Below, piece after piece: positions 13,233 to 64,000 of a DNA stretch of 64,000 bases. A program made the translations under genes and the position numbers. Below the pieces are notes generated by a model. It did no database searches, was not told where the DNA came from, and saw only the letters and a list, made by a program, of their open reading frames with translations. Positions within the stretch are counted from its first letter, which is position 1. Each line of letters opens with the position of its first letter. Origin of the DNA: an uncultured Candidatus Saccharibacteria bacterium (GTDB lineage Bacteria > Patescibacteriota > WWE3 > UBA101185 > 2-01-FULL-41-18); the NCBI GenBank assembly GCA_964636285.1, contig CAZWQF010000002.1:9669-73668 (forward strand), given 5' to 3'.

Positions 13233-14795
13233 ATGTTACGTGAGGTTGAGACACAGCACCATGGGGACTTACCAGGTGAAAAGCGATTTGAGCTTGGGAA
13301 TGAAAATCTTGCCGAAAGAGGAAAAATTAATTCTGAGCTTAAAAGGCTAGGGCTTGTGGTTATTGAAATGGATAATGTGGATCTGGATTCTGGCCGACCT
13401 GTACAAAGGTTGTTCCTTCTAGCAGAGGAAAGCAAACCTATTGCTACAAGGTTTGCTAGACCAGACTTAAATACCGAAGACACCTCATCGCTTCAGCATA
13501 GTGACAAAACAAGGTTTCAGGAAATATTAGCCGGTTTATCTCCATTTATCCTAACTATTCCAAAAGATGTTCAAAAAGAAATTGAATCTGGATTCGAGCA
13601 AAATGTTCTTAAGCCAGGTTTTAGAGCCCATATTCAGGGAGTTGTACCTCAAGAAGACTATGACTCATCTTTAATTCCAATTCGAGACATACTTGGAGCC
13701 GGAAAAGAATCTCTCACGCATCCAAGACTTCAGATTGATGTGTATGACGATAAAGGAGTATTTGTAGAGAGTATAGTTCTGCAACATATCACAAAAGATG
13801 AGGAAAAAAGAGTTGGCAGACTTAAGGCTAAGTTTGGAACTAACACAAGCCTTGAGTATAAAGAAGAGCTTGGAAAGAAAACAAGAGACCTATACAACTT
13901 TTTCCAGAACGATGGCATTGCTGATAAACCTGTAGAAGATCAGGCATCAAAAGGTCACATGGCAACTAGAAGAGGTTTAACTATGCTTGATTGCCTAGAG
14001 ATCTGTATGGACAATGATAGGCCTCAGGACTGGCTTGCAAAGGTTGATCCATACTCCCGTGATCTAAATCTTTCGGCAAGACAAAGAGAAACTCTGGACT
14101 TGATGAAACTTAGGCAGTCAGAGAAATTACAGGCAGGTCAAAACATTGAGCTTGAGAATATTTACCCAAGTGAGATGGATGTGATTAATGAGGCCCTAGC
14201 TTTAGCAGTTCAAGCATTCAGCATGGAAACAAGCACAGACCCGTCAGTTTTAGCTACACATAAAGCAACAATTGAGAGCTTAACCCACTATAGAGATACT
14301 ATTGAAAAAGGTCAGAGAAGAAACTATCACAATATAATCAGGTACGATCAATGGGAATTTAATAGGCTAAAAAACTCAAATTTTCAGGAAAAGTTAACCG
14401 AGATTCTCGGGTCTGGTCAGATTAAGTCTAGAGAGGGTACGTTTGTTAAAGGGCACTACCTAGCAAATTGCGATATTGGAAAAGACGAAGTAGGAAAGCT
14501 CCCCGCTCTGTTCATGGAAGGAAATGGATCCCCAACCTCAGAAACTCCTGTATGTATCCTTGAAACCGAAATGGTTATAACCCCTCATTTTAAACATGAA
14601 GGTTGCTCAGTAGCCTATGAAAATACAAGTTTGACTTTACTCAAAAGAATCATAGTTGCAGATGGGGATATAGAAAGCACAAAAGAGTTACTAAAGAACG
14701 AAGGGTTTGCTGACGTAGAAGTTGTTGGGTACAGCAATTGGCAGGTAGAAATGGCTTGCATAAGTGCAGCACAATTCAATCTTAAAAAATGGTAG
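13233..14795 (+). CDS. Hypothetical cytoplasmic protein (520 aa), no recognisable domain
   Basis: Long acidic ORF. Local composition looks somewhat GC-richer than the flanks. No motif recognised. Confidence 0.4.
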   Translation: MLREVETQHHGDLPGEKRFELGNENLAERGKINSELKRLGLVVIEMDNVDLDSGRPVQRLFLLAEESKPIATRFARPDLNTEDTSSLQHSDKTRFQEILAGLSPFILTIPKDVQKEIESGFEQNVLKPGFRAHIQGVVPQEDYDSSLIPIRDILGAGKESLTHPRLQIDVYDDKGVFVESIVLQHITKDEEKRVGRLKAKFGTNTSLEYKEELGKKTRDLYNFFQNDGIADKPVEDQASKGHMATRRGLTMLDCLEICMDNDRPQDWLAKVDPYSRDLNLSARQRETLDLMKLRQSEKLQAGQNIELENIYPSEMDVINEALALAVQAFSMETSTDPSVLATHKATIESLTHYRDTIEKGQRRNYHNIIRYDQWEFNRLKNSNFQEKLTEILGSGQIKSREGTFVKGHYLANCDIGKDEVGKLPALFMEGNGSPTSETPVCILETEMVITPHFKHEGCSVAYENTSLTLLKRIIVADGDIESTKELLKNEGFADVEVVGYSNWQVEMACISAAQFNLKKW

Positions 14796-16268: not shown

Positions 16269-17456
16269 TTGGTGACTGTTATGTTTAAAGACAATAAAAA
16301 TTTACTGGTGATAGCTGTAATCGCAGTTGTTAATGCACTTGGATATGGAATTGTAATACCTATTTTGTACTCGTATTCCAAGCATTTTGGCCTCACGGAT
16401 TGGCAGAATGGGCTTTTATTTTCCACGTTTTCATTCTGCGCCTTTATATCTACACCTATAATAGGTAAATTATCTGATAAGTACGGGAGAAGACCGTTAC
16501 TTCTTATTTCTGTAGCAGGAACGGCAATATCATTTTTCATGCAGGCGTTTGCTCCTAATGCTATCTTTTTATTCTTAGCTAGGGCACTTGATGGCCTTAC
16601 TGCAGGAAATATATCTGTAGCTTCAGCAATTATTGCAGATACAACTAAGCCCCAGGACAGAGCAAAAGGCTTTGGAATTATTGGAGCGGCATTTGGATTT
16701 GGATTTGTTGCTGGCCCTGCTATTTCAGCTTCAACGGTTGGGATTTGGATGCCTTTACCTTTTGTAATTGCCGGCGTTGTGACTACAATTTCTTGGATAC
16801 TTACATACTTTGTTCTTCCAGAAACTAATGCACATAAGGGGCAGATTGCTCACGACAACACATTTGACCTTACTCATCTTTGGCACGGACTTTTTGACTC
16901 AAAGCTGGGAAATACCTTTAAAATAACGATTTTATATTCAATAGCATTCTCCTGCGCTATGATGTACGGTTTTCAGCCTTTTGCAAAAAATATACTTAAG
17001 CTTTCCGACTCCTCTATTTCTATGGCTTTTGTTTTCATAGGGGTTGTAGGACTGATTATGCAAAGCTTTTTTGTTCAAAAAATCAGCAAGTCACTTGGAA
17101 CTATGAGGGCGTTTAAGATTTCGGTGTTAATTGTTGCTTCCGCATTTCTTTTATACTGCTTAGTTAACAGCTACTTTAGCTTGATTTTGGTTATGATTGT
17201 TATGGCAAGTGCAAATTCGCTTGCCCAGCCACTCATTAACACAATTTTATCGCTTGAAACCGAACCAAAAAACCAAGGGCATGTAATGGGAATGAACACT
17301 TCGTACATGAATGCAGGTCAAATATTCGGGCCAATTATAGGAGGATTAATTGCTTCCTATTACATCAGAGGTGTTTTTGTTTTTGGAGCTTCGTTATTGC
17401 TAGTTTGTATATTTCTTGCAAGAAAAATCTCAATTCAAAACAATGGAGCGCATTAA
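16269..17456 (+). CDS. MFS transporter
   Basis: 12 TM helices and the MFS loop motif GKLSDKYGRRPLL. Confidence 0.75.
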   Translation: MVTVMFKDNKNLLVIAVIAVVNALGYGIVIPILYSYSKHFGLTDWQNGLLFSTFSFCAFISTPIIGKLSDKYGRRPLLLISVAGTAISFFMQAFAPNAIFLFLARALDGLTAGNISVASAIIADTTKPQDRAKGFGIIGAAFGFGFVAGPAISASTVGIWMPLPFVIAGVVTTISWILTYFVLPETNAHKGQIAHDNTFDLTHLWHGLFDSKLGNTFKITILYSIAFSCAMMYGFQPFAKNILKLSDSSISMAFVFIGVVGLIMQSFFVQKISKSLGTMRAFKISVLIVASAFLLYCLVNSYFSLILVMIVMASANSLAQPLINTILSLETEPKNQGHVMGMNTSYMNAGQIFGPIIGGLIASYYIRGVFVFGASLLLVCIFLARKISIQNNGAH

Positions 17457-19933
17457 TTTTTAGGGGAATGGATTAGTTTAAGTGTTGTATCCTCTGAAGT
17501 AGGAACGCCTTTAATTCCCATAAACGAAGGGGTTTTAACTCTTTTATACTCCTTGATTGCATAAGCATCCTTTGATGCAGTAATTTTCCAGTCTGAAATT
17601 ATCATTGAGACCAAATCTATAGCTTCGTCATCGTGCATATTAAACATTTCACCATACCACCCAAGCGGTACATGTAACCCAAACTCAGTGTCTGTGCCGG
17701 GAATTATGTAAGAGCAATCATATTGGTTGTAGGTTTCATCCGCAACATCCATTCGCACAATCACTTCTGATGCCCCTTTTGTTGTTAAAAAAGGAGTAGT
17801 TGGAACTTCCACAGTTGTAGTAACAGGGCCATCGCCCTTTGCAAGCCTACAGGGGGTGTTACAAACCATCAATTGCTTTGGAGTTACATCTCCCTTGCCT
17901 GATAAGGTAAAGTCCTCATCAGGGGTAAGTTCTATTGTTCCAGAGTACTCCTCATCAAATCCTGGGCAGATACTGCTTTGACCAATAAAGTGAGATGAGA
18001 TTTCTATCTTAAAGTAAGCACATTTGAGTGACATGTCTTTTATGTGATCAACATCAAGTCCAGACACACCATCAAGCCCTAGGCTTTCTGCAAGTGCATA
18101 GTACCTTAATAAGATGGATGCTTGCGAAGGGTCTTTTTCTTGAACACATGCTTTATGCGATCTTTCTGAAGCTGATTTTATAGCTTTGGCTAAAAGCTCT
18201 CTTCCCATCTTTATATTTCCACCCTGTTTGTCGTCAAGATCTAATGATTGAACGGCCTGAAGCCAAATTAGATACTCTTTTGCTGCAGGAACAATGTCTT
18301 CATCTTTTGTTTGTGCAGAATCTAGGTAAGGTTTTACACCTTCTTTCCACCAATTTGAAAGTATGTCTGAGAATCCATTTTTCTGGACTTCCGTAAAAGT
18401 ATCATTCATGCCAAAACCTTGTAGTGTTTGAATCCAGCTTAAAATGCTGAGTATATCCTGCTGAGCTTGAACCCTTACATTGTTATTTATCTCTTTTTCT
18501 TTAAATGTGTCAGGTACTGTTATAAGTCCAAATCCTGAAAAGTGCATTACAGGAACTCTGACAGTATTCCCTTCAGCTGAGGCCGGGAAATATATCATGT
18601 TTTCCCCACCATTTTCATAAGCAAAAGCAAGTAATTTTCCTTTTGGCTCTTGATTCAGATTTATTGTAAGCACGGCCGTTTTGCTAAGAACTGCATCAGG
18701 AGCTTTAAAATCTACACCTCCAATAAAATTTGCCTCTTTAGGAAGGCCTGAAACACCGTAAATAGGAGCTGCCTTGATTTCCGCTCCCCAAACAATAGAA
18801 TTTTTGCCAACTGAAAGTTCGTATGTATTTGTGGAATCGGAGACCTGAATGTTCCCTCCCTTAAGACCAACCTTGGCAGATTTTCCGAAAGAACTAACTG
18901 CTACAACCCCACTCTTATTCTTTGCAAACCTTCCAAAAACAGGCAGTTTAGATGCGTTTGGAGAAACAAACAAATAGGCGCTGGTAAAAAGAACTAACGC
19001 TACGGCAACAACAATTGCATTTCTTTTTAATGTCGCAGGAGAAGGTTTAAAATCTGCAAACGAAATAACAACAAGCACAATACCTAGTAGTACAAGAAGC
19101 TCAAAAATAGAATTACTTGTCTGCTGGTAGAGTACAAAGGGCTTGAATGTAATTGCCTGAATAACCAGTGTTGCAATATCAGAAAATTGCTTTGGAAGAA
19201 ATTTAGCTAGAAAGAACGAAATCTTAGTGGGGTCACCTGCAAAGGTTGTGATTAGAAATAACCCTAAAGCTCCATAGAGTGACGTTAAACCAGTCCAGAA
19301 TAAAATACCTGAAATGCCCTTCCCAAGGCTCAGCAATATTACTAGCGCAAATAAAACGGCGCTTACTGCTATAGCTACAGTCAAGCCGTACTTTTGAATC
19401 CAAACTAAAGATTTTACCCAAAAGAGGTAGTTTCCGAGTTTAATGGTAGGCGTGTCCTTAATCAATTTGGAAAAATCAGGCATGGATTCCACGGAATCTT
19501 CGCCACCCTCCTCTTTTATTTGGTCTTTAAACTGCTCAAGATACGCTGAAACTTCCTCAACATTTATGTCAGTTTGGCTAACTAGCTTGTCCTTAATATC
19601 TAAAAATGATATTTCAGGCTCTTTTTCCGATTTTCCGGTTGCCCAAGCTTCGGTTTGATCTACAACCAACTCTACCTTCCCTTGAATGTATTCGGGCGTG
19701 AGAAAGGAGTTGTTTGCAAAGGGATTTTCTTCGCCCTCACTTGAGCTTTTAATTGTAGATATAATGGATTCGTAAAGATTCGAACCTGACAATGCTCTTT
19801 TTATGGAATTTGCGTCAAAGGAGCTTTGCTTTACTGAATAGAGCCCCACTAACAACGGAGTTAAAATAACAAATGCAGGCAATATAAATAGTTTAAATAT
19901 GTTTTTGAACATGTGAGCAGGCTGTCCACACAA
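17453..19933 (-). CDS. Large membrane/surface protein of unknown function (826 aa)
   Basis: N-terminal TM/signal, a mid-protein cluster of TM helices, and a long predicted extracytoplasmic C-terminal region. No catalytic motif recognised. Confidence 0.4.
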   Translation of the reverse strand: MCGQPAHMFKNIFKLFILPAFVILTPLLVGLYSVKQSSFDANSIKRALSGSNLYESIISTIKSSSEGEENPFANNSFLTPEYIQGKVELVVDQTEAWATGKSEKEPEISFLDIKDKLVSQTDINVEEVSAYLEQFKDQIKEEGGEDSVESMPDFSKLIKDTPTIKLGNYLFWVKSLVWIQKYGLTVAIAVSAVLFALVILLSLGKGISGILFWTGLTSLYGALGLFLITTFAGDPTKISFFLAKFLPKQFSDIATLVIQAITFKPFVLYQQTSNSIFELLVLLGIVLVVISFADFKPSPATLKRNAIVVAVALVLFTSAYLFVSPNASKLPVFGRFAKNKSGVVAVSSFGKSAKVGLKGGNIQVSDSTNTYELSVGKNSIVWGAEIKAAPIYGVSGLPKEANFIGGVDFKAPDAVLSKTAVLTINLNQEPKGKLLAFAYENGGENMIYFPASAEGNTVRVPVMHFSGFGLITVPDTFKEKEINNNVRVQAQQDILSILSWIQTLQGFGMNDTFTEVQKNGFSDILSNWWKEGVKPYLDSAQTKDEDIVPAAKEYLIWLQAVQSLDLDDKQGGNIKMGRELLAKAIKSASERSHKACVQEKDPSQASILLRYYALAESLGLDGVSGLDVDHIKDMSLKCAYFKIEISSHFIGQSSICPGFDEEYSGTIELTPDEDFTLSGKGDVTPKQLMVCNTPCRLAKGDGPVTTTVEVPTTPFLTTKGASEVIVRMDVADETYNQYDCSYIIPGTDTEFGLHVPLGWYGEMFNMHDDEAIDLVSMIISDWKITASKDAYAIKEYKRVKTPSFMGIKGVPTSEDTTLKLIHSPKN

Positions 19934-40937: not shown

Positions 40938-42519
<1,582 letters not shown>

Positions 42520-42523
<4 letters not shown>

Positions 42524-42864
42524 AAAACACCTCCTCTTTCATGTAAGGCCTCGGCTAAGGTTTGATTGTCAAAAATAGACCTCTCAAAGTCATCAAGCCA
42601 TGTAGTAACTAAGAAATCTATATCAGTTGTTATTGCTTTTAATTCAGCCACAGTAAATTCTTTAAAAAGCTCACCTAAAGCTTCTTTCACCTTGGCAAGA
42701 TCTTTATCTTGTCTTTTTTGATCAGGAAACATTACATCAAGTGTTTCATTGATGTTGAATTGGGATTTAAATTTTGAGGCAGATTGATCAAAAACCTGAA
42801 TGAAAGGTGCTATTAACAGTTCTCTTTGCTCTTGGTATATATCTATTCCTAAACTCATGGGCAT
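42520..42864 (-). CDS. Hypothetical small protein co-transcribed with the integrase (possible recombination directionality factor)
   Basis: 114-aa acidic ORF that overlaps the integrase start by 4 nt. The RDF role is speculation. Confidence 0.3.
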
Positions 42865-42871
42865 TATTTAA

Positions 42872-42889
42872 CTATAAATATATTTATAG
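42872..42889. promoter_or_regulatory. Perfect 18-bp palindrome CTATAAATATATTTATAG in the divergent promoter region between integrase operon and T4CP gene
   Basis: Read directly from the sequence. Partially re-iterated downstream (TATATAAATATA). Confidence 0.4.
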
Positions 42890-42982
42890 TGTATATAAAT
42901 ATAATGATAGAGTCAAGTAGTTTTCCTTATAGGTGTACTAAAAAACTAAATAAGGGTATACTTCAATAAATTTTCCTGCCTA

Positions 42983-45565
42983 GTGAAAATAGGCATGACT
43001 GACATTAATCAACTTAAAATTAGTAATGTCATTGAATGGGTATTAAAACACCCATTTTTAGGGTCTTCAAAACTTCCGATTGGTCTTGAAATAGCACTCG
43101 TTTGTCTACTTTCAATATTAGTTTTAATTTTTCTTATTAAATTATTTGGTTTACTCCTAAGTCTTAAGTCTCAGTTAAGCTCAAGTTACGACCTGTTACT
43201 CTTAACTCCACCTAAAGAGATTGAAAAACTCCCAGAATCTACAAAAGAGTTATTTAAGCTTTTACATTCTTTAGGTAAAAACCAACCACTGCTCAATAGA
43301 ATACTCAATGTATTTTCTTGTTATTCATTAGAAATAGTATCTACAAAAGAAAAGGGAATATATTTTCTTTTAAGATGCCCTCAAAGAGATACAGGCACAA
43401 TAAAACGAAGCTTAGTAGCTTACTCTCCTGACATTTTAATTTCAGAAACTAATGACTATTTGAATGACCTAGCTAGTTCAAAAGTCACCGAATTAAAGCT
43501 ATCAGGACACAAATTTTTACCACTAGAGTCACAGGCTAACTTAAAGGCAAGTGACCCAATCGCATATTTAACTGGCATGATGACAAAACTATCTGAAAAT
43601 GAATTAATTGCGTTGCAGTTTGTTATAACTCCTTTTCAAGAAAATAAAGAATTTTTTGAATTAAAGCAAAAGCTAAATTCCAATATTAATGTTGTTGAAT
43701 TACTTAAGCATTCTAGATTTAATCTAGTTAAATTTCTCCCAAAAGTCTTGTATTCAATTATTTCAATTCCTTTTTGGATTATTGAGAACCTTGCAACCAA
43801 TGGGAACTCAAGCTTCCCAAATGTATTTAATGAAGGGACTAGAAAAATCGATTCCTTAAGTCCTAATAATGAAGTTCAGGCAAGAATTCAATCGAAAGTA
43901 ACCCAACCACTTTTTACAACCAATATTAGAGTCCTTGTTAAATCTGATCGCACACTAACGCTTTCAGAGAGAACTCGTGGTTTACTATCTTCATTTAATG
44001 GCTTTACCTATGCCAGTTACCAATCAGTAAAGCCTGTAAGGGTGCTTAAGTTTGAGTTTGTTAAACAAATACTTCTTAAACTTTTCTCAAAAAGAATTGT
44101 AGGAGTATTTAACTCGTCAATTTTATCTGTGTCTGAAGTTTCAGATTTATTTCATTTTCCATTTACACGATCGGCTAAAACAGAAAACTTAGTAAAGCTT
44201 CACTATAAAGAGCTTCCTGCTCCGATATCACTTAAAGGCCAAAAGAAGCTTGATATTGTCTTTGCTAAAAACACTTTTAACCAATCAGAAACCCCTATTG
44301 GACTTACTACTGACGAGCGAAGACGACACATGTACATTATTGGTGCAACAGGGACTGGAAAATCCACAATCCTACTTTCAATGCTTAAACAAGATATTAT
44401 GAATGGTAAAGGAGTTTGTTTAATCGACCCACATGGAGATTTATCTGAGCAAGTTTTATCACTCATACCAGAAAATAGAGTTAAAGATGTTATTTACTTT
44501 AATCCAGATGATACTGAGTACCCAATTGGTATAAATCTACTTGAACAAACACCAGGACTAACGCCTGCTGAATCAATTAGAGAAAAAGAATTTATAGCAG
44601 AAAGCATTATCTCGGTCTTTCACAAAATCTATTCTGATAAATACTCAGGTCCTCGAATGGAGTACATCTTAAGAAATACTATTCATACAGCTTTTACTGT
44701 TCCTGATGCAACGCTTTTTACAGTCCAAAAACTGTTAATTAATACCAACTACAGAAAATCTGTTACAAACAATCTAACTGACGAAAACCTTAAAGAATTT
44801 TGGAAGTATGAGTTTAATAAAGCTGGTGATTACCAGAAGGTTAAGATGATTAGCCCGATTACAAATAAGATTGGACGGTTTTTATTTAGCTCAACTGCTA
44901 AACAAATTCTAGAACAGCCCAAATCAACCATAAACTTTGATGCAATCTTAAACGACGGCAAAATATTAATTTGTAATCTTTCCAAAGGAAAAATCGGTGA
45001 GGATAACTCAAGCATCTTTGGTGTACTTCTCATGGCAAAAATCCAGCTAGCTTCTTTAAAACGAGCGAGAATTAAAGAATCAGAGCGAAAAGACTTTTAT
45101 TTGTACGTCGATGAATTTCAAAACTTTGCTACTTCAGCCTTTGCTCAAATACTTTCTGAAGCGAGAAAATACAGGCTTAACGCAATTCTTGCTCACCAGA
45201 CTACTTCACAACTTGAAGACTCATCCCTAGTTAATGTGACACTGGCTAACACTGGTACCGTTATATGTTTCAGAACTGCTAACCCAGAAGATGAAAGAGT
45301 TGTATTGCCTCAGTTTAGACCTTATGTAGAACAAGGGGAGATAGTTAATTTACCTTCATATCATTTTTATATGAAGCTTGGAGCAATGAACCCTGAAGAG
45401 CCGTTCTCAGGTGTGACTATACCTATCACTGTAAGTAACGGTAGTAATACAAACATGGTAATCGAAAGTTCAAGAAAAAATTATGCAAAAACTTTAAAAC
45501 CAAAAGAAGTTGGGAGTGAGACTAAAACAAACAAATCTACGGTATATAAGCCAAAGAACTTATAA
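42983..45565 (+). CDS. Type IV coupling protein (TrwB/TraD/VirD4-like P-loop ATPase) with N-terminal TM anchor
   Basis: N-terminal TM helices, Walker A (MYIIGATGTGKST) and Walker B (FYLYVDEFQNF), 860 aa. Confidence 0.6.
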   Translation: MKIGMTDINQLKISNVIEWVLKHPFLGSSKLPIGLEIALVCLLSILVLIFLIKLFGLLLSLKSQLSSSYDLLLLTPPKEIEKLPESTKELFKLLHSLGKNQPLLNRILNVFSCYSLEIVSTKEKGIYFLLRCPQRDTGTIKRSLVAYSPDILISETNDYLNDLASSKVTELKLSGHKFLPLESQANLKASDPIAYLTGMMTKLSENELIALQFVITPFQENKEFFELKQKLNSNINVVELLKHSRFNLVKFLPKVLYSIISIPFWIIENLATNGNSSFPNVFNEGTRKIDSLSPNNEVQARIQSKVTQPLFTTNIRVLVKSDRTLTLSERTRGLLSSFNGFTYASYQSVKPVRVLKFEFVKQILLKLFSKRIVGVFNSSILSVSEVSDLFHFPFTRSAKTENLVKLHYKELPAPISLKGQKKLDIVFAKNTFNQSETPIGLTTDERRRHMYIIGATGTGKSTILLSMLKQDIMNGKGVCLIDPHGDLSEQVLSLIPENRVKDVIYFNPDDTEYPIGINLLEQTPGLTPAESIREKEFIAESIISVFHKIYSDKYSGPRMEYILRNTIHTAFTVPDATLFTVQKLLINTNYRKSVTNNLTDENLKEFWKYEFNKAGDYQKVKMISPITNKIGRFLFSSTAKQILEQPKSTINFDAILNDGKILICNLSKGKIGEDNSSIFGVLLMAKIQLASLKRARIKESERKDFYLYVDEFQNFATSAFAQILSEARKYRLNAILAHQTTSQLEDSSLVNVTLANTGTVICFRTANPEDERVVLPQFRPYVEQGEIVNLPSYHFYMKLGAMNPEEPFSGVTIPITVSNGSNTNMVIESSRKNYAKTLKPKEVGSETKTNKSTVYKPKNL

Positions 45566-50866: not shown

Positions 50867-51718
50867 TCATACGATTTTATCAAGGTGACAGCGTTTATAC
50901 TTCAACCCTGAACCACACCAACATGGATCGTTTCTCCCAATATGCAGATTTGGCTCAATATATCTGTTATAGGGATTACCAACTAATCTAAATCCACCTT
51001 TTTTTGAATCTATCTCTATAATTCCCCCAACAATCTTAAAATTTCCGATAATTTGCGCATTACCAATTTTCATTTTGGATTTCTGAAGTGTTATCAATTG
51101 GTTATTAAACCAAAGCTTCCCCAAAATTTCGATAGGAAAAACGCTCGCATTAATTTTTAATGAAATCTTGTACAAAGCGCTACGAATAATTAATAAATTG
51201 TACGAGTATTCCAGATCCCAAATTACATTTGTTCTTGCAACCCACTCGTTATCTACAATTTCTGCAACTAGCTCATTCTTGGCATCATATAACTTCACGT
51301 TTAACAATAACGTGCCGTGAGATGTTTGCCTTACGCTTAATAAGTGCTCGTTATCTATTTTGATTATTGTTCCTGGGCCAGAGGAAAAAGTTGAATTCCC
51401 CAACTTAAGATCACAATTATCCTGTTTTACATGTAAATTTCCATTTACTAAATTACGTGTGAAATTGAATGGTTTTTCTTTGAATGCTCTTTGATCACCT
51501 TCACTCATTACCTTAACCTCATCATGATGATTTGGACATAAAATCATCATATCTTCTGGGCGAAAATGAGGATCTATATTGTAAGGGATGATGTGATGGT
51601 ACTGAAATATTGGATGACCACAAACACAACACCCATAACCTGCTTCGACACGTAATATGCGTTTAACAACCTCTGGAACTGGAGGTCTATTGATAAAATC
51701 GTTGGACATAGTGTGCAT
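50867..51718 (-). CDS. HNH endonuclease-like protein with C-terminal SEC-C zinc-binding motif
   Basis: N-terminal CCVCGHP...YHHIIPY...LCPNHHDE (HNH/His-Me finger). C-terminal NDPCWCGSGLKYKRCH (SEC-C motif). Confidence 0.6.
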   Translation of the reverse strand: MHTMSNDFINRPPVPEVVKRILRVEAGYGCCVCGHPIFQYHHIIPYNIDPHFRPEDMMILCPNHHDEVKVMSEGDQRAFKEKPFNFTRNLVNGNLHVKQDNCDLKLGNSTFSSGPGTIIKIDNEHLLSVRQTSHGTLLLNVKLYDAKNELVAEIVDNEWVARTNVIWDLEYSYNLLIIRSALYKISLKINASVFPIEILGKLWFNNQLITLQKSKMKIGNAQIIGNFKIVGGIIEIDSKKGGFRLVGNPYNRYIEPNLHIGRNDPCWCGSGLKYKRCHLDKIV

Positions 51719-57069: not shown

Positions 57070-57291
57070 ATGAGTAAGAGCATATATTCTCCAGATCAGA
57101 AAAATATTGCAAAGAAGCTAAAAGACGCGAGGCTAGAGGCAGGTATAGATCAAACCCTTGTCGCTAAAATAATGGGTAAATCTCAATCATATGTTTCAAA
57201 AATAGAGGCAGGACAAAGAAGGATAGATGTAGTTCAACTTAAAGAGTTTGCAAAGGTTTACGACAAATCCCTCGATTATTTTATTAAATAA
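57070..57291 (+). CDS. XRE-family HTH transcriptional regulator (candidate RM controller C protein)
   Basis: HTH (QTLVAKIMGKSQSYVSKIEAG). 73 aa, immediately upstream of the HNH REase candidate. Confidence 0.65.
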   Translation: MSKSIYSPDQKNIAKKLKDARLEAGIDQTLVAKIMGKSQSYVSKIEAGQRRIDVVQLKEFAKVYDKSLDYFIK

Positions 57292-57292
57292 T

Positions 57293-58387
57293 ATGACTAA
57301 AGATACTTCAATACAAAACGAGTTATTCAGTATTCAACAATTGGAAAATAAAGTAAGCCTTAACTTTGAATCCTCAACTACTGCAAATGAGTTCGGGAGA
57401 ATGGACTTTTACTCTAGACTCCTTCATTCTTTAAAGCCCGATGAAATGAGAATATGGAGGGAAGCAGACCGACTCGATTTAGAGATTAGAGGCTGGCCTA
57501 AAAATATTAAATGGAATCGAACTTCCGAAAAAGAGTTCGAAGGGAAGATTGCGGATCAAGGGAGCTTTGTCCTATCCAAATACTCTGGAACTCTTGAAAA
57601 GGCCTTACAAGGAACTTTACAAGGGATTGCTGCTGGAAACGGTACTCGTTTAAATGTGATTGAGATAGGTAATGTTTCAAATTGGAAAGAATATAAGTTT
57701 TATTCTAAGGCACGTACAATTGCCGCGTTATGTGTTCTCTATGATCTCGAGCCACATCCCAGAAATGATTTAGAAATAAATGTTCCAAATAATCTTCAAC
57801 CCCACTGGATTTGGCCTATTAACCAAGCTCAGGAGTCTGTTATAAGGGTTTATGGGGATCCCAGCAAAACAGCTGATGTTTTAAGGAATGAGGGTTGGAC
57901 TAGAGAAGGTAATTCAGCTGGTATGAAAGTTTTTAATCAAATAGTTGGTGGCGCACGTCAACAAATGTATCAATTGTTAAGGCAAGAGCAGGATATTAGC
58001 CAACAGGTTATGCGAACTAATATTCCAACCAGATGGAAAATGGAGTTATTCAGAAGTCAAGATTACACTTGTAGAATTTGTGGACTTAAGTATGACTATT
58101 CTTTATTATCCCCTGATCATAGAGTTCCAGTAATTTACCAAGCAGATGAACTAAATGAAGAAAACTATAAAATTAAACTTATGACACTCTGTAGATTCTG
58201 TAACCAGCAAAAACGAGAGGTTTGCAAGAGATTCCCACCAAACTATGTGTGGGATACAAGTCCCTGGGCTTATCCAGAGAAATTTGCTATTAAGAAAATT
58301 AAAAGTGAGATAAATCAGTTTGCTAAAGTCAACAAACTCTCTGTAGAAGAAATACTTAAACTAATTCAAGAAGAAGAAAACTACTAA
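57293..58387 (+). CDS. HNH-type putative Type II restriction endonuclease
   Basis: C-terminal HNH (CRICGLKY...SPDHRVPV...LCRFCNQQK) and a large N-terminal putative recognition domain. Convergent with two m5C MTase genes. The ORF track starts at 57248; Met at 57293 is the more plausible start. Confidence 0.55.
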   Translation: MTKDTSIQNELFSIQQLENKVSLNFESSTTANEFGRMDFYSRLLHSLKPDEMRIWREADRLDLEIRGWPKNIKWNRTSEKEFEGKIADQGSFVLSKYSGTLEKALQGTLQGIAAGNGTRLNVIEIGNVSNWKEYKFYSKARTIAALCVLYDLEPHPRNDLEINVPNNLQPHWIWPINQAQESVIRVYGDPSKTADVLRNEGWTREGNSAGMKVFNQIVGGARQQMYQLLRQEQDISQQVMRTNIPTRWKMELFRSQDYTCRICGLKYDYSLLSPDHRVPVIYQADELNEENYKIKLMTLCRFCNQQKREVCKRFPPNYVWDTSPWAYPEKFAIKKIKSEINQFAKVNKLSVEEILKLIQEEENY

Positions 58388-58426
58388 GCTATCAGATTCA
58401 ATTGGGAATGTTGTTCAACTGTTGAT

Positions 58427-59398
58427 TTAATTATGTAGTTCATCATAGTTACTAAAGTAGTCGTATATTACGCTAGCAATTGCTTGGGCTAGCCCGACTG
58501 GAACAGCATTACCTATTTGACGGTAAACCGAGGTCATTGCCCCATAGAATTCGAAATCAAGTGGAAAGTCTTGTATAACTGCTGTTTCACGACAAGATAA
58601 TCTTCTCTGATTGTTTGGATGATGATTTATCATCGCCCCACCCTTTTTATCACCTCTCGCAGTAATTGTTGGGGACGGCTTTGTTGGATCTATATAACGA
58701 TTGCTCAAGTAACCATTAAATTTAAGTTTAAATTTAGAATATTCATGGTTTTTTAAATTATGTGTCGAATTTGGTTCAGGTATCAAATCCAGAGCTTTCC
58801 CTACCGACACCCATTCAAGTGTCGTAGAATTGGGATTTTTACTATGGGTGGGTTTTGGAGGGAATTGAATGTTTGGATTTAAATCTTTTCTAATTCCCAA
58901 AATTAGAACTCTTTGTCTGGTTTGAGGCACACCATAGTCTGCAGCATTTACTAGTGCATATCGACAATTGTAACCGATCTCGGAAAAATCTTTCAAAATC
59001 ATTTTGAACACATCTCCCTTATTTAAACTCAGTATTCCCTTAACGTTTTCGGCAAGAAATAATTTAGGTCTTTTGTCTTTTATTATTCTTTTCATTTCCA
59101 AATAAAGTTTGTTCCTGCTATCGCTAGTGGAACGATTCATATTCGCGAGAGAAAACCCTTGGCAAGGAAAGCCTCCAATAATTATGTCTGTTTCTGGAAT
59201 ATCAGTAGAGCTAATATTCTCTATTCCATTCAGTACAATATGTTTTCCTAAATTCATCTCATAAGTCTTTACTGAGTCCGATTCATTGTCGTTAGCCCAA
59301 ATTATATTGAAACCAGCATTTTTAAAACCTAAATCCATACCTCCAGCTCCAGAAAAGAGCGACACAACAGTTGGTTTATTTTTGTGAAAGTTATTCAT
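58427..59398 (-). CDS. DNA (cytosine-5)-methyltransferase
   Basis: Motif I (LFSGAGGMDLGF), motif IV (GGFPCQGFS), ENV and the C-terminal QIGNAVPV. Confidence 0.85.
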   Translation of the reverse strand: MNNFHKNKPTVVSLFSGAGGMDLGFKNAGFNIIWANDNESDSVKTYEMNLGKHIVLNGIENISSTDIPETDIIIGGFPCQGFSLANMNRSTSDSRNKLYLEMKRIIKDKRPKLFLAENVKGILSLNKGDVFKMILKDFSEIGYNCRYALVNAADYGVPQTRQRVLILGIRKDLNPNIQFPPKPTHSKNPNSTTLEWVSVGKALDLIPEPNSTHNLKNHEYSKFKLKFNGYLSNRYIDPTKPSPTITARGDKKGGAMINHHPNNQRRLSCRETAVIQDFPLDFEFYGAMTSVYRQIGNAVPVGLAQAIASVIYDYFSNYDELHN

Positions 59399-60360
59399 AC
59401 GCTATCTATACTTCTCAAATACTTATTGTAAACTTCTATAACCTTCGCCCCAAGCAGCTTGGAATATTTTACTGGTACTGCATTACCTATTTGTCTATAC
59501 TTAGAGTTAACAGAGCCATAGAATTTAAAATTGTGAGGGAATGTCTGAATCCATGCAGACTCTCTTACAGTCATTCTTCTGATACCGTTGGGATGTGGTG
59601 TTGCATTTACCCCACCTTTGCCATTGCCTCTTGCCAATATAGTTGGACTAGGTTTGGAACCGTCGGTTGCTCTATGCCCCGTGAAGTTTCTGATCTCCAG
59701 TTTGTATTTAGTCCCCACATCTTTATCTGCTAACTCTCCAAACTTTTCAAGATTAATAAAGGCCTCGTTTACCGAAACCCACTTTTTAGTATTCATGTCT
59801 CCGTTTTCGGAATGTGTTTCGTTTGGATAACAAAGTTCAAAATTAGGCATTAGATCTTTTCGAGTGCCAAGGATTATCACTCTTTTTCTCATTTGAGGAA
59901 CACCATAATTAGCCATGTTAATTAATTGATATTTAACTGAATAACCTGCATTTGCAAAGTCATCAACTATTTTTTCTATCACCTTACCATTTTCTATATT
60001 CAGAATACCCCTAACGTTTTCAGCAACGAACCATTTTGGTTGTTTATCATTCACAATTCTTAGCATCTCCAGATAAAGGATATTCCTACTATCGTTTATT
60101 GATCTAAATTTATTAGCAACAGAAAATCCTTGGCAAGGAAATCCACCTACTATCAAATCTGGATCAGGAATATTTTCAGACCGAACATCGAGAATATCAG
60201 AGAGTATTATTGTATTGGTTTTGAGATTGGCTTTATACGTATCAAGCGAATCTTTATCATTGTCATTTGCCCATACTATCTCTAAACCCGCTTTTTCGAG
60301 GCCTAAATCCATACCACCGGCTCCACTAAATAGTGATACAACTTTTGGTGTCTTCCTCAT
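59395..60360 (-). CDS. DNA (cytosine-5)-methyltransferase (second, paralogous)
   Basis: Motif I (LFSGAGGMDLGL), PCQGFS, ENV and QIGNAVPV. Overlaps the downstream MTase by 4 nt. Confidence 0.85.
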   Translation of the reverse strand: MRKTPKVVSLFSGAGGMDLGLEKAGLEIVWANDNDKDSLDTYKANLKTNTIILSDILDVRSENIPDPDLIVGGFPCQGFSVANKFRSINDSRNILYLEMLRIVNDKQPKWFVAENVRGILNIENGKVIEKIVDDFANAGYSVKYQLINMANYGVPQMRKRVIILGTRKDLMPNFELCYPNETHSENGDMNTKKWVSVNEAFINLEKFGELADKDVGTKYKLEIRNFTGHRATDGSKPSPTILARGNGKGGVNATPHPNGIRRMTVRESAWIQTFPHNFKFYGSVNSKYRQIGNAVPVKYSKLLGAKVIEVYNKYLRSIDSV

Positions 60361-60399: not shown

Positions 60400-61023
60400 T
60401 TACAAAGCCCTTCTAATTAAGCCACAAAACTTTCCCCTAATTTCTATTTCGCCAACCTCAAATTGTCTTGGCCAATCTTTTAATCTAGAATTTGCTGCTC
60501 GAAGTTCTATCTTGTCGTTTAACATATAAAACTTCTTAAGAGTAGCTAATTCATTTCCATTATTCATAATGGCAACTACTGTATCCCCGTTTTGAGCAAT
60601 ACTTTGTGATCTAATGACTACAACATCACCGTCGTGAATTCCATCGTCGACCATGCTGTCACCTGAAACTTTTAATGCAAAATGACTTCCTGTCCCAGGT
60701 AAGAGGTCTATTGAAACTTTTATTGGCTCTGGGTTCTCAATGGGTTCTATTCCTGCTCCAGCAGAAATTTTACCAACAAGGGGTATTTCTTTAAAACCTC
60801 CATTTTCTTCGAAAACGGATATGCTTCTAGTGGACTTGGGCTCATATTTCAAAACACCCTTCTCTTTTAAAGCAACAACGTGCTTATGTACAGCCGATAT
60901 CGAATCAATCATCATCAACTTTCCTAACTCATCAAGTCTTGGAGGATATCCATGAAGTTTTATGTAAGCTTGGATGTGTGTGAATGCTTCTTTCTGCCTT
61001 TTGCTTAGGTTAGATATTGACAT
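60400..61023 (-). CDS. lexA: LexA-family repressor (wHTH + S24 peptidase)
   Basis: N-terminal wHTH, an Ala-Gly-like cleavage region (ISAGAG), the catalytic Ser (GDSM) and a downstream Lys (LKKF) typical of S24. Confidence 0.75.
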   Translation of the reverse strand: MSISNLSKRQKEAFTHIQAYIKLHGYPPRLDELGKLMMIDSISAVHKHVVALKEKGVLKYEPKSTRSISVFEENGGFKEIPLVGKISAGAGIEPIENPEPIKVSIDLLPGTGSHFALKVSGDSMVDDGIHDGDVVVIRSQSIAQNGDTVVAIMNNGNELATLKKFYMLNDKIELRAANSRLKDWPRQFEVGEIEIRGKFCGLIRRAL

Positions 61024-61055
61024 AACATGATTTCCTGATTTATATTAGGTGAAAC

Positions 61056-61078
61056 TGTTTCTCTATTATGGAGGAACA
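61056..61078. promoter_or_regulatory. Imperfect 23-bp palindrome TGTTTCTCTATTATGGAGGAACA between lexA and the CBASS-like operon (candidate LexA-type operator)
   Basis: 18 of 23 positions are self-complementary, with TGTT...AACA ends. Located in the short divergent intergenic region. Confidence 0.35.
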
Positions 61079-61105
61079 ATATTTATATGTCAAGAAAGAA
61101 TAACA

Positions 61106-62476
61106 ATGCACTACTTACTACCAAAACTGAAAAACGAGCATGATTTCGAAGAACTAGTCCGTGACCTATATCGCATCAGATATAAAAACCCAAATCTGCA
61201 GTTATATGGTCGAAAAGGCCAAAAGCAACATGGCATTGATATTATTGGAGTCGCTGGCAAAGATAGGGCTACCGATAAGGATGGAGTGATTCAATGCAAA
61301 AACCACACTGCAAACATCTCAGATGCAAAATTATGCTCAGAAATTGACGATGAACTCGCAGCTTTCGACAAATCTAGTTTCAAAGGTGGTGCTTTTACCT
61401 TCGCCACAAGTGCCTTTAGTTCGGCACCAGTCCAGGATCACGTTATAAAGATTAATGCATCCAGATCCAGGAATAAGCAAAATTCTGTCTCACTTATTTT
61501 CTGGGAAGAAATAAGCCAAGAGACTGTGAGCAATCAAGCTCTTCTTCACAAGTACTATGGCGATCAACTGTCGGTTGCACCACCTGTAAAATTTATTGTT
61601 CCTGACGCTGGTGGAACGACGCGCACAACACACATGGTCAAATTGAGCGACCTCGAAGACCAAACAAAGACGCCAATGCTTTTGACAGACCTCAAAGCGA
61701 CATGCCTAGCCAATATCGGCAATATTCGTAAAACGGACCCTTACAACTTGTACCTGGGAATATCAACGCATAGCGATGTGAATTTTAACTCACGGGTTGA
61801 TTTGCATGTTGACGCTTCAGAATTCTTTTCTGACATGGATGATTTGGATATTAAGTACAAACACATTGTTGCAGGACTTGTAAGTCTTTCCTCAGTCTTG
61901 GGAGACCCCTTCTTTTCCAAAAGAATTGTCATTACCTCAGATATTGAATCTAACCTTGCACTAATGGTTGGTAAAGTTTTTAGAAAACATCGATTTGAGA
62001 TCGACATACTATTCAAAGAGGTTTATCTAACCTCGAAAAAGGATGAATTGGCCTATTACCCATCACTAATCGATGAAACTTTCTTACTCACCCAAACATC
62101 AGTCGATGTCGTTCCCGAAGACCTTGTTTTCGTTGTAAATATGGCGCTACGAACAGACATTACAAAAGATGTTATGGGGTATGCGAAAACTTACATACCT
62201 AACGCAGTATTTCGGTTTTATGGACTTAGTAATGGAAATGCTGTGGTGCATTCAGCGCATGCAAGCTCAATCGCAGAAGATATTGGAGCGAAACTGCACA
62301 ACTTTCAGGGCCTGGGGCTAAAACGTATACATATCTTCATGGCAACTCCCAAACCACTCGCAATGTTGATTGGACATAAGATCAATACCCTTAACACAGA
62401 ATTGCATTTGTACTTTAGAAGTTCTGATAGGAGTACCTATCTTAAAACGGGAGTATTGAAAAACAATACTTTTTGA
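61106..62476 (+). CDS. Mrr-type PD-(D/E)xK nuclease fused to a long C-terminal domain (putative SAVED sensor; Cap4-like CBASS effector)
   Basis: N-terminal 150 aa match the Mrr_cat pattern (FEELVRDLY...HGIDIIGV...DGVIQCKNH...FATSAFSS). About 300 aa unassigned C-terminal. The ORF track gives a GTG start at 61049; the ATG at 61106 is preferred. Directly followed by the NTase gene. Confidence 0.5.
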   Translation: MHYLLPKLKNEHDFEELVRDLYRIRYKNPNLQLYGRKGQKQHGIDIIGVAGKDRATDKDGVIQCKNHTANISDAKLCSEIDDELAAFDKSSFKGGAFTFATSAFSSAPVQDHVIKINASRSRNKQNSVSLIFWEEISQETVSNQALLHKYYGDQLSVAPPVKFIVPDAGGTTRTTHMVKLSDLEDQTKTPMLLTDLKATCLANIGNIRKTDPYNLYLGISTHSDVNFNSRVDLHVDASEFFSDMDDLDIKYKHIVAGLVSLSSVLGDPFFSKRIVITSDIESNLALMVGKVFRKHRFEIDILFKEVYLTSKKDELAYYPSLIDETFLLTQTSVDVVPEDLVFVVNMALRTDITKDVMGYAKTYIPNAVFRFYGLSNGNAVVHSAHASSIAEDIGAKLHNFQGLGLKRIHIFMATPKPLAMLIGHKINTLNTELHLYFRSSDRSTYLKTGVLKNNTF

Positions 62477-62488
62477 AGAGAAAACCTT

Positions 62489-63856
62489 ATGACAATAAAT
62501 AATTACTTTGATAAGTTTTTGGAAAACATCGAACCTAATAAGAAATATAAGGATTATGCTATAGCGGCGCATACGAAAGTTAGGGAATACCTTGAGAGTG
62601 AGGACTCACAATTTTCTGCATTCGTAAATACCAGTTTTCTATACGGCTCCTACGCAAGGTTTACCGCAGAAGGAAACATAAAAGATGTCGATATCTGCTT
62701 GATAGTAAATTTCGATCACACGAAAGCAGAAAATAGCCCAAGCAAGGTTTTGCCAAAGTTAAAAGCTGCACTTACTCGGCTTTACAAAGATCCAGGAGCT
62801 ACAGATTATCAACGGAAATCAATACAAGTCCTCGAACCATTGCCTGAGGACAAAGAAACGGAACTTACATTAGATATTATCCCGGCCATTCTTACTGGAT
62901 CTGATCAAGAAAAGCTCCTTGTACCTGACACTGAAAACGACACTTGGGTCTATACCCACCCGAAGGCGCACCTAGAATATACATCCACCATGAACGACGA
63001 CAAACATGGAAAAGGCATGTTCGTTCCACTTGTGAAAATAATGAAACACTGGTGGAAATTTCAATCAGAAGATGAAAAAGCAAAACCAAAGGGTTTTTGG
63101 TTAGAGATGCTTACAGGAGATGTATTTGACCCTAGTAAAAAAACCTATGCTGAGCATTTCGTGACTGTGCTACAAGGAATAAGTAAGAAGTTTTTCAATT
63201 ACGAAAACATGACTGAAGTTCCGGCTATAGACGATGTTGGATTACCTGGGGAAACACTAAAAACTAGTATGACACTGGGAGAGTTTGTGCATTTTATGGA
63301 TGCAGTGAACGATACCTTAGCAATTGCTCAAGAGGCACTTGGATCAACAAACATAGATGCATCGATACATTTATGGAATGCCGTATTCGGTGACGAATTT
63401 CCGAAGTCTGAAAAAAGTACGACGTTTGATCTTTCCAAAATTGTCGAGTTCATTGGTCTATTCATTGCCCCAAATGAACAATATTTAAAAAGAGATTTTG
63501 GAATTTCTTTTGAAGACCACGATTACACTGTAAAGATAGACGCAACAGCCACTCAGAACGGATTCCGGCCTACTCTTATAAGCAGAGTGCCCCTGATTAA
63601 GAAAAAGGCTGAATTAGTTTTTGGGATTACCAAGTGTAATGTGCCGGAACCATATTCGGTAATGTGGAAAGTAAAGAATACTGGAAAAGAAGCGACGAGA
63701 ATCGGTCAACAAAGAGGAGAGATTACACATGACCGTGGCAAACGGAAAAAAGTTGAATCAACTTTATATACAGGTACACATTTTGTGGAATGCTACATTA
63801 TAGATAGCCGAAAAGTGTGCGTGGGGTGGGATAGGGTAAAAGTCCGAATTCCTTAG
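62489..63856 (+). CDS. cGAS/DncV-like nucleotidyltransferase (CD-NTase/SMODS-type)
   Basis: Pol-beta NTase core GS...DxD (FLYGSYARFTAEGNIKDVDICLIV) and a third acidic residue about 65 aa downstream (ELTLDIIPA). The N-terminal helical lead-in is typical of CD-NTases. 455 aa. Confidence 0.55.
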   Translation: MTINNYFDKFLENIEPNKKYKDYAIAAHTKVREYLESEDSQFSAFVNTSFLYGSYARFTAEGNIKDVDICLIVNFDHTKAENSPSKVLPKLKAALTRLYKDPGATDYQRKSIQVLEPLPEDKETELTLDIIPAILTGSDQEKLLVPDTENDTWVYTHPKAHLEYTSTMNDDKHGKGMFVPLVKIMKHWWKFQSEDEKAKPKGFWLEMLTGDVFDPSKKTYAEHFVTVLQGISKKFFNYENMTEVPAIDDVGLPGETLKTSMTLGEFVHFMDAVNDTLAIAQEALGSTNIDASIHLWNAVFGDEFPKSEKSTTFDLSKIVEFIGLFIAPNEQYLKRDFGISFEDHDYTVKIDATATQNGFRPTLISRVPLIKKKAELVFGITKCNVPEPYSVMWKVKNTGKEATRIGQQRGEITHDRGKRKKVESTLYTGTHFVECYIIDSRKVCVGWDRVKVRIP

Positions 63857-64000
63857 TTTTTCCATTTTCGATCTATGTTTCAAGCTATGTAATTTCACTA
63901 TAAGTACGCCTATTGATATATCCAATGTTACAACCAAGTTTGGGGGAGATCACGCTCCCAAAGACTAAATGCTTATCTAACTGCAAAAAAAGGCAAATTT

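Follow-up and report, generated by a model that had tools for sequence, protein, structure and literature searches.

We analyzed a 64,000-nucleotide stretch of contig CAZWQF010000002.1 (hereafter the window), at whose right end a preliminary description had placed a nuclease-SAVED effector followed by a cyclase, read as a minimal cyclic-oligonucleotide-based antiphage signaling system (CBASS). Both open reading frames (ORFs) lie where that description had put them, on the plus strand and 12 nt apart. The first encodes the predicted effector and the second a cGAS/DncV-like nucleotidyltransferase (CD-NTase), and the window ends 144 bp past the stop codon of the latter (Table 1). The reading of the module was correct, but it overlooked the gene for a LexA-type repressor that adjoins the pair, the promoter and operator region that the two transcription units share, the AGS-C domain of the cyclase, and the resemblance of that enzyme to clade-D cyclases.

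The start of the effector is ATG 61106, as the same alignment column begins all 13 homologs; for this reason a longer, GTG-initiated reading from 61049 is unlikely. The motifs quoted for an Mrr-type nuclease core are present, HGIDIIG at residues 42-48 and DGVIQCKNH at residues 59-67. In an alignment of 14 sequences, G43, I44, D45, I46, and G48 (G-I-D-I-x-G) and I62, Q63, C64, K65, and N66 (I-Q-C-K-N) are invariant; so are E15 and D20, which lie in the first helix. The Pfam family Mrr_cat matched this region with 21.5 bits (threshold, 21), and the sole PADLOC match to the N-terminal domain was the LmuA nuclease model of Lamassu (residues 10-126, 2.8e-5). The C-terminal part, about 280 residues for which only a SAVED-like size had been noted, matched SAVED in Pfam (PF18145; 3.8e-9, 37 bits against a threshold of 26.2) and in NCBIfam (NF033611; residues 201-448, 2.2e-13), as well as the SAVED-effector models of PADLOC. 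When the profile of the effector family was run against PDB sequences, it matched the SAVED domains of Cap4 (6vm5, 2.2e-7).

An AlphaFold (AF2) model of the effector, built from the 14-sequence alignment, had a predicted local distance difference test (pLDDT) score of 80.7 and consists of an α-β-β-β-α-β nuclease core followed by two α/β lobes, at about residues 175-309 and 322-451. The top Foldseek matches of this model were full-length Cap4 proteins (6vm6, 6wam, 6vm5, and 7yib; E about 1e-13), with TIR-SAVED, a viral SAVED protein, and Cap5 ranking next. Because both the fold and the SAVED profile match Cap4, we predict that the effector works like Cap4. We nevertheless keep it out of the Cap4 family, since DUF4297, the endonuclease-type domain that defines Cap4, was not detected. 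The effector family is small, with 14 close homologs among 5.8 billion clusters; an exhaustive profile search of 1.84 billion representatives returned 42 matches at E ≤ 1e-30, about 35 of them full-length. The N-terminal nuclease module alone (about 155 aa) matched hundreds of proteins of 200 to 2165 aa in many architectures and seems to be in wide use as an effector module outside SAVED fusions as well.

The second ORF matched SMODS (8.9e-23) and, over residues 330-454, AGS_C (1.3e-32) in Pfam, and the best of the PADLOC cyclase models matched at 2.3e-66. The GS/DxD/D signature that had first marked it as a cyclase is invariant (G53, S54, D66, D68, and D129) in 39 sequences with identities down to 36%. 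In a HMMER alignment, T156 falls at Lid 1 and H161, also invariant, at Lid 2. The closest solved relative of the single sequence was BcCdnD (1.5e-45). Scored against the profile of the cyclase family, BcCdnD (9SA4) reached 260 bits, EcCdnD and SeCdnD 166 and 160 bits, and PaCdnD 100 bits, with CdnB, CdnE, and CdnC at 40 bits or less. Foldseek ordered the relatives of the AF2 model (pLDDT 87.3) as CdnD > CdnC > CdnB > CdnG > CdnE > DncV, with template-modeling (TM) scores of 0.75-0.79 on the CdnD targets, and the AGS-C region was modeled as seven β strands. By both sequence and fold, the catalytic domain is closest to the clade-D cyclic-trinucleotide synthases among solved structures, a set that includes few or no members of clades F and H. 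The protein is a signaling CD-NTase, as had been proposed, and not an enzyme of the MNT/AbiEii type.

BcCdnD makes 3'3'3'-cyclic tri-adenosine monophosphate (3'3'3'-cA3), which activates a Cap4 nuclease-SAVED effector, and the residue at Lid 2 has been linked to the product, His to cAAA and Gln to cAAG (PMC13424991). The XGSX motif of the window cyclase, YGSY, lies outside the product rule of that study. Because of the kinship with BcCdnD, together with the Lid 1 Thr and Lid 2 His, our best guess for the signal is a cyclic trinucleotide, most likely cA3. We regard a cyclic trinucleotide as evenly balanced and cA3 in particular as somewhat doubtful. A survey of about 2,400 type I cyclases described AGS-C as an immunoglobulin (Ig)-like domain present in about 40% of type I operons, suggested that it has a role in phage sensing, and reported it overwhelmingly from clades B and H, from part of F and G, and never from type I clades A, C, D, and E (10.1101/2023.05.21.541620). 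If its placement near clade D survives phylogeny, the window cyclase family is an exception to this survey.

Effector and cyclase genes are adjacent, effector first, in seven of seven loci (the window and six homologous loci, L002-L007), with junctions that are either 4-bp overlaps or gaps of 8-12 bp; the genomic coupling on which the preliminary description had staked its reading is found in all of them. Neither Cap2, Cap3, nor HORMA genes follow the cyclase in the six homologous loci, where the genes past the cyclase differ every time (a methyltransferase with HpaII, a 105-aa ORF, and a histidine phosphatase, among others). Since these downstream genes are unrelated from locus to locus and none is Cap2, Cap3, or HORMA, we assign the pair to type I, which also answers indirectly the earlier question of whether such accessory genes lie beyond the end of the window. 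An identical cyclase is on record only in a 2.3-kb Logan contig, the end of which lies about as far downstream as that of the window; the identical effector is listed on an NCBI contig of 139,961 bp. The HMM (hidden Markov model) searches and the structure prediction that had been suggested as checks came out in the same way as the individual results above: SAVED, Mrr_cat, SMODS, and AGS_C were matched, DUF4297 was not, and the C-terminal part of the effector was modeled as two α/β lobes in the fold of Cap4. We are confident that the pair is a type I CBASS with a nuclease-SAVED effector, and its role would be phage defense.

A LexA-type gene adjoins the CBASS pair in all seven loci, in two layouts. 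In the first (T1; the window and L007), lexA is divergent from the pair, and the two loci are 65% identical in LexA, 44% in the effector, and 56% in the cyclase. In the second (T2; L002-L006), lexA, effector, and cyclase lie on one strand, and lexA overlaps the effector gene or is separated from it by 5 bp or less. The T2 LexA proteins are about 30% identical to those of T1 and have Cys-Gly, not Ala-Gly, at the aligned cleavage position. A longest-contig value of 6,887 bp that recurs among the relatives of effector, LexA, and cyclase may point to a further T2 trio. The LexA of the window contains LexA_DNA_bind (4.9e-14) and Peptidase_S24 (2.5e-23) and no other Pfam domains, and it matches solved LexA proteins end to end (3k2z from Thermotoga, 1.1e-29; 1jhh from E. 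coli). Residues G89, S123, and K163 are invariant in the aligned LexA proteins. No PADLOC model matched this LexA, and no second LexA was found within the 64-kb window. A genome scan with the LexA alignment returned only ordinary LexA, at 32%-43% identity, with Patescibacteria and Saccharibacteria genomes among the closest matches; neither this effector family nor this cyclase family occurred at any of the 80 top-ranking LexA loci of other genomes.

Between lexA and the effector gene, two promoters face each other (Table 1); they are the two best sigma-70-like matches in the region. Transcription from the CBASS-side promoter is predicted to start at the perfect palindrome GAAAC-T-GTTTC, a putative operator. 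The palindrome belongs to a block of about 33 nt that is almost identical in L007, as are both -35 boxes, although the proteins of the two loci share only 44%-65% identity; the reverse complement of this block is found upstream of lexA at L088, a locus considered below. The -35 and -10 boxes of the CBASS-side promoter are conserved in both L007 and L088. The exact palindrome occurs once in 64 kb and, with the exception of one poor site, the other intergenic regions of 41-64 kb contain no two-mismatch copy. As the operator is neither enriched nor found in an intergenic copy elsewhere in the window, no SOS regulon can be defined from these 64 kb. Each LexA lineage has palindromes of its own. That of L003-L006, ACACAT-R-ATGTGT, is conserved and lies at the -10 box, and all T2 loci other than L002, whose palindrome is different, have TTCACATAATTTACACATRATGTGTTATAAT directly before the lexA start codon, whatever cargo follows. 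A short, out-of-frame upstream ORF at 61087, which follows GGAGGA, was dropped as a candidate, since its "ATGTCAA" is the conserved minus-strand -35 box.

To see what else accompanies such repressors, we chose five relatives of the T2 LexA without reference to CBASS; their identities are given relative to the LexA of L003. The T2 LexA forms about 55 clusters at ≥50% identity, with one member named as LexA of a Patescibacteria bacterium, and one relative of the cyclase carries the source name Levyibacteriota. Scans of viral contigs found no relatives of either the cyclase family or the co-operonic LexA. Defense genes occupy the lexA slot in all five relatives. After two of them (P0028, 78%, L092; P0021, 85%, L096-L098) stands an unrelated CBASS in cyclase-first order, with a DncV-like cyclase that carries AGS_C followed by an HNH-SAVED (Cap5-like) effector; the L092 protein scored 4.5e-99 with PADLOC. 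After another two (P0029, 77%, L090/L091; P0017, 95%, L093), lexA is followed by a metallo-β-lactamase (MBL)-fold protein, which in L093 matches PDC-M48B (1e-89) and LmuA-like (4e-34) models of PADLOC, and then by a 229-aa protein without a family match. This cassette (L090 6617-8374, L093 6617-8377), whose MBL-fold protein has 355 aa and in L093 resembles the LmuA-MBL of Lamassu, may be an uncharacterized defense system. In the fifth (P0050, 57%, L094/L095), DUF1508, a helix-turn-helix gene, and a type III-like methyltransferase with a ResIII helicase begin about 230 bp past lexA and stand between two recombinase genes; in L094, LexA itself lies between a tyrosine integrase and a serine recombinase. 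Thus, a LexA that is 95% identical to that of L003 precedes entirely different cargo, and the upstream flanks differ too. In the co-operonic loci, lexA and cargo overlap or are separated by 1-11 bp. Because such gaps leave no room for another promoter, the cargo must share the autoregulated lexA promoter.

Similar variety was found around other LexA genes. At L088 (a 287-kb contig), the slot divergent from a T1 LexA (3517-5916, minus strand) contains a DUF2188 gene (PADLOC PDC-S16, 1e-35), a gene for a 422-aa Schlafen/AlbA_2 protein, and one for a 297-aa protein that has Cys/His-rich motifs but no family match and is 27% identical to the product of window ORF 50867-51718, which carries a SEC-C motif. 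For comparison, we used nine other Patescibacteria loci from the genome scan with canonical LexA, of which the ninth (L029) was left unscored. In five of the nine, housekeeping genes lie directly downstream: those for VTT and RsmI-like proteins, a PP2C-like protein, an RsmI-like protein, a HAD hydrolase, and a 70-aa ORF without a match. In another three, LexA (DNA-binding domain plus S24) is fused in one ORF to a DNA methyltransferase (Table 1). The LexA parts of these fusions, all from Patescibacteria or Saccharibacteria genomes, are the closest species-representative relatives of the window LexA (41%-43% identity). To our knowledge, although no search aimed at them was made, LexA-DNA methyltransferase fusions have not been described. 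The cargoes in lexA slots include two unrelated CBASS families, PDC-M48B, a PDC-S16/Schlafen module, and restriction-modification (R-M) methyltransferases, among them the LexA fusions. These arrangements agree with a resident LexA that offers exchangeable defense cargo a slot in its transcription unit and at its divergent promoter.

On the other side of lexA, the window contains two genes for C5 cytosine DNA methyltransferases that are 50% identical to each other. They share the strand of lexA and begin after a 39-bp gap with the ribosome-binding site AGGAGG, so that lexA-dcm-dcm probably forms a single operon, an arrangement reminiscent of the LexA-methyltransferase fusions. An HTH_3 controller-like gene and the gene for a 379-aa protein converge on this operon, and 57070-60360 appears to form a complete type II R-M module. 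Chromosomal genes make up the left part of the window, namely a ClpB-like gene, Pol I, PolX, GatA, and four tRNA genes. Beyond it, a large serine recombinase gene overlaps the tRNA-Gly gene with its 3' end, and 40938-45565 may be part of an integrated element, the other end of which was not found in the window. The genes that follow encode a type IV secretion system (T4SS) with VirB2-like pilins, a PrgI/VirB3-like protein, and VirB4; this type of T4SS is known from 2,417 of 3,035 Patescibacteria genomes, where it is chromosomal and for the most part has no relaxase (10.1101/2025.01.22.634366). No attachment-site repeat of the tRNA-Gly was found in 41-64 kb, and with the window ending so close behind the cyclase, the placement of the CBASS pair "at the edge of the element" in the preliminary description is unproven. 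Similar hairpin stretches, GGGAG-N6-7-CTCCCAAAG, are located after the tRNA-Gly (41015-41041) and after the cyclase stop codon (63943-63969); their local alignment score of 22 is reached by 2% of background windows, and they could be att remnants, terminators, or chance. Four indirect grounds make a candidate phyla radiation (CPR) host likely: the type of T4SS, the Patescibacteria and Saccharibacteria genomes among the closest LexA matches, the source names carried by relatives of LexA and the cyclase, and a low G+C content of about 37%. The window proteins that were looked up form singleton clusters. Two further ORFs, 17453-19933 (826 aa) and 13233-14795 (520 aa), had no Pfam match at E ≤ 1e-5.

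Table 1. Features of the CBASS locus, its surroundings in the window, and the LexA fusions of other loci
Feature	Position	Strand	Basis or remarks
Predicted CBASS effector, 456 aa	61106..62476	+	Pfam, NCBIfam, PADLOC, invariant residues, AF2/Foldseek, PDB profile
Mrr-type PD-(D/E)xK nuclease, N-terminal	~residues 1-160, nt 61106-61585	+	Candidate catalytic E15, D45, Q63-x-K65
Two-lobed SAVED sensor, C-terminal	~residues 175-456, nt 61628-62473	+	Pfam/NCBIfam/PADLOC, PDB profile, fold
CD-NTase, 455 aa	62489..63856	+	SMODS/AGS_C, PADLOC, PDB ranking, AF2/Foldseek, invariant active site
Cyclase catalytic domain	residues 1-312, nt 62489-63424	+	YGSY 52-55, KDVDI 65-69, LDI 128-130
Cyclase lid residues	Lid 1 T156, Lid 2 H161	+	HMMER alignment
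AGS-C β-sandwich domain of cyclase	~residues 330-454, nt 63476-63850	+	Pfam AGS_C; AF2
LexA-type repressor, 207 aa	60400..61023	-	Pfam, match to solved LexA, invariant residues; divergent from CBASS
LexA parts	A88-G89 cleavage site, S123, K163	-	Winged-helix DNA-binding domain and S24 self-cleaving domain
Shared control region	61017..61093		Promoter scan, conservation in L007 and L088; spacer 82 bp (61024-61105)
CBASS-side promoter	TTGACA 61017-61022, TATATT 61041-61046	+	18-nt spacer; scan, 11/12
lexA-side promoter	TTGACA 61093-61088, CATAAT 61070-61065	-	17-nt spacer; scan, 11/12
Putative operator palindrome	61051-61061		Perfect palindrome, between both -10 boxes
Second inverted repeat	61056-61078		Overlaps operator palindrome; also flagged terminator-like on + strand
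Two C5 cytosine DNA methyltransferase genes	58427..60360	-	Pfam DNA_methylase 5.5e-79, 2.1e-81; context, outside CBASS
HTH_3 controller-like gene	57070-57291	+	Converges on methyltransferase genes
379-aa gene	57248-58387	+	PADLOC REase_II 1.4e-11; no Pfam match
tRNA-Gly	40938-41012		Overlapped by 3' end of serine recombinase gene
Large serine recombinase	40991-42523	-	Abuts tRNA-Gly
TrwB/VirD4-like (coupling-protein-like) ATPase	42983-45565		Followed by T4SS genes
LexA-methyltransferase fusion (C5)	L009 2174-3751
LexA-methyltransferase fusion (C5)	L010 5998-7539
LexA-methyltransferase fusion (N4/N6)	L014 969-2405

The analysis shows directly which domains and folds the proteins have, which catalytic residues are conserved, how the genes are linked, and that the promoter/operator block is kept between loci; the nucleotide product, the activation of the nuclease, the binding of LexA to the palindrome, its cleavage, the induction and RecA dependence of expression, and the defense against phage are inferred. 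On the whole, we favor a CBASS that signals with a cyclic trinucleotide and that DNA damage releases from transcriptional repression. Infection would activate the CD-NTase, possibly via its Ig-like AGS-C domain, and the enzyme would make a cyclic oligonucleotide, most likely a cyclic trinucleotide such as 3'3'3'-cA3. This signal would bind the two-lobed SAVED domain of the effector, which would then oligomerize and switch on its Mrr-type PD-(D/E)xK nuclease; degradation of DNA would abort the infection. As for expression, we lean, if only slightly, toward control of the CBASS pair by LexA. Intact LexA would repress both face-to-face promoters across the one palindromic operator. Once DNA damage or replicating phage had set off RecA-stimulated self-cleavage of LexA, repression would be lifted both from the CBASS and from the genes on the opposite strand, lexA and the methyltransferase pair. 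CBASS expression is thus probably switched on by DNA damage.

Several observations weigh against this reading. The Mrr_cat score of the effector is marginal, only 0.5 bit above the Pfam threshold, and DUF4297 gave no Pfam match at E ≤ 1. Taken as a whole, the region shows no enrichment of promoter-like matches (8 found, 10.1 expected). The second inverted repeat (TGTTTCTC...GAGGAACA, then ATATTTATAT) is terminator-like on the plus strand and could be an attenuator in the CBASS leader, instead of or besides a protein-binding site. At L088, a LexA of the T1 type that is 70% identical to that of the window stands with the same operator block and no CBASS. The window-type LexA is therefore not dedicated to CBASS, and its adjacency could be a hotspot effect.

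A purely positional hotspot is accordingly the main rival to LexA control: the type I CBASS would be functional and constitutively expressed from a promoter of its own, and LexA would be the resident chromosomal SOS repressor next to the conserved T4SS cluster, without regulatory meaning for the pair, its flanks simply collecting defense genes. The L088 gene agrees with this view, being syntenic with that of the window after VirB4 (80% identical) and an M23 peptidase (59%), as do the variable cargo, the excess of co-operonic LexA clusters over the 14 effectors (one of those clusters being an annotated Patescibacteria LexA), and the status of the T4SS cluster as a chromosomal core feature of Patescibacteria (10.1101/2025.01.22.634366). 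However, the overlaps and very short gaps of the co-operonic loci put the cargo on the lexA promoter whatever the origin of LexA. Moreover, the palindrome of the window lies at the predicted start of the CBASS transcript, the promoter boxes are kept in L007 and L088, and each of the five LexA relatives sampled independently of CBASS has defense genes in the slot. We consider a hotspot without regulation unlikely. The LexA-like protein could also be the master repressor of a mobile element at the tRNA-Gly, as SetR and CI are of integrated mobile elements, with the R-M and CBASS genes as passive cargo at the far end. The serine recombinase that abuts the tRNA-Gly, with the TrwB/VirD4-like ATPase and T4SS genes behind it, would suit such an element, and so would the IS110, Replic_Relax, and DUF2958 genes near the trio in L005 and L002 and the position of the L094 LexA between two recombinases. 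Yet no operator-like site was found in other intergenic regions of 41-64 kb, no attachment-site repeat was found, no relatives occur on viral contigs, and this type of T4SS is near-ubiquitous, chromosomal, and mostly relaxase-less in Patescibacteria. We therefore find a mobile-element repressor improbable, and it would in any case be compatible with co-regulation of the CBASS. Finally, the pair might not signal at all but combine a toxin-antitoxin nucleotidyltransferase of the MNT/AbiEii type with a stand-alone Mrr-like restriction enzyme. A weak NTP_transf_2 match below threshold (0.0054), a weak match to an anti-phage nucleotidyltransferase model, and the marginal Mrr_cat score point that way, but they are set against matches of SMODS, AGS_C, and PADLOC cyclase models at 1e-23 to 2e-66, the full-length resemblance of the cyclase to CdnD in sequence and structure, and a bona fide SAVED domain on the first ORF. 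Domain, profile, and fold matches effectively refute a non-signaling pair, which we hold to be exceedingly improbable.

A CBASS kills or arrests its own cell, and how it stays silent is an active question. Three classes of DNA-damage-sensing regulators have been reported since 2022: CapW, CapH/CapP, and CapK/CapS. A LexA-type regulator, if confirmed, would tie CBASS directly to the classical RecA/SOS pathway. We suggest, tentatively, that LexA-family self-cleaving repressors may be a fourth, RecA-dependent class of DNA-damage-responsive regulators of immune operons, with the lexA unit of Patescibacteria as a swappable cargo slot that would bring abortive-infection and restriction systems under SOS control. 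The model can be tested at once, since operator, promoters, and cleavage residues are all pinned down at nucleotide level. If the LexA wiring is real, an effector that cuts DNA could feed back via RecA and amplify its own expression; should the link be no more than one of position, the locus would still hold a type I CBASS, divergent but otherwise ordinary. The locus documents a complete cyclic-oligonucleotide immune system in what is probably a reduced-genome member of the Patescibacteria, and its clade-D-like cyclase with AGS-C is a combination that one type I survey reported absent (10.1101/2023.05.21.541620). The lexA-anchored slot could guide the search for new defense genes in CPR genomes.

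Among known systems, the effector is most like Cap4 of Acinetobacter baumannii, Moraxella osloensis, Enterobacter cloacae, and Bacillus cereus (6vm6, 6wam, 6vm5, and 7yib), with which it shares a PD-(D/E)xK nuclease and a two-lobed SAVED domain of about 280 residues. However, its identity to solved Cap4 proteins is only 12%-15%, and its nuclease scores as Mrr_cat or LmuA-type, not as DUF4297. Cap4 proteins bind cyclic trinucleotides (PDB entry titles; PMC13424991), and that of B. cereus belongs to a type II operon (PMC13424991), whereas the window effector is in a type I operon. The best matches to the cyclase catalytic domain were the clade-D synthases BcCdnD (9SA4/9SA5/9SAX), EcCdnD02 (7ljl, 7d48), SeCdnD (7ljm), and PaCdnD (6p82). 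The window cyclase has the xDVDI and LDx motifs, the Lid 1 Thr, and the Lid 2 His in common with cA3 makers. BcCdnD works with Cap2/Cap3, and PDB titles list EcCdnD02 in complex with Cap2 and PaCdnD with HORMA; the window cyclase instead carries AGS-C, and its homologous loci have no accessory genes. Type I CBASS with AGS-C are likewise two-gene operons in which the cyclase has a C-terminal AGS-C domain of about 125 residues, but the survey found the domain mainly in clades B and H and in part of F and G, whereas the catalytic domain of the window cyclase is clade-D-like and its host is probably one of the Patescibacteria, not a proteobacterium.

The repressor genes of CapW/BrxR (WYL), CapH+CapP, and CapK+CapS are, like lexA here, located directly upstream of or divergent from immune operons, which are of diverse kinds. 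In those systems, a palindromic operator lies at the promoter and induction by DNA damage has been shown or proposed; the same reports make no mention of LexA or S24 repressors of CBASS (PMC9122588, PMC11662680, 10.1101/2022.04.27.489752, PMC13373217). In the titles and abstracts of the literature searched, the coverage of which is incomplete, we found no description of a link between CBASS and LexA. Unlike these regulators, that of the window is a single LexA-family protein that would self-cleave on RecA filaments; it has only LexA_DNA_bind and Peptidase_S24, and neither a WYL sensor of single-stranded DNA nor a separate metallopeptidase (M78-type) or kinase. It matches the canonical LexA of the SOS response from end to end, with the cleavage Gly, the catalytic Ser and Lys, and an apparently autoregulated promoter with a palindrome, but lexA is here tied to defense cargo, either in one operon or across a divergent promoter, and some relatives are fused to a DNA methyltransferase. 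What sets this CBASS apart from described systems is the Mrr-type nuclease on a SAVED effector, AGS-C on a clade-D-like cyclase and, above all, the constant LexA wiring.

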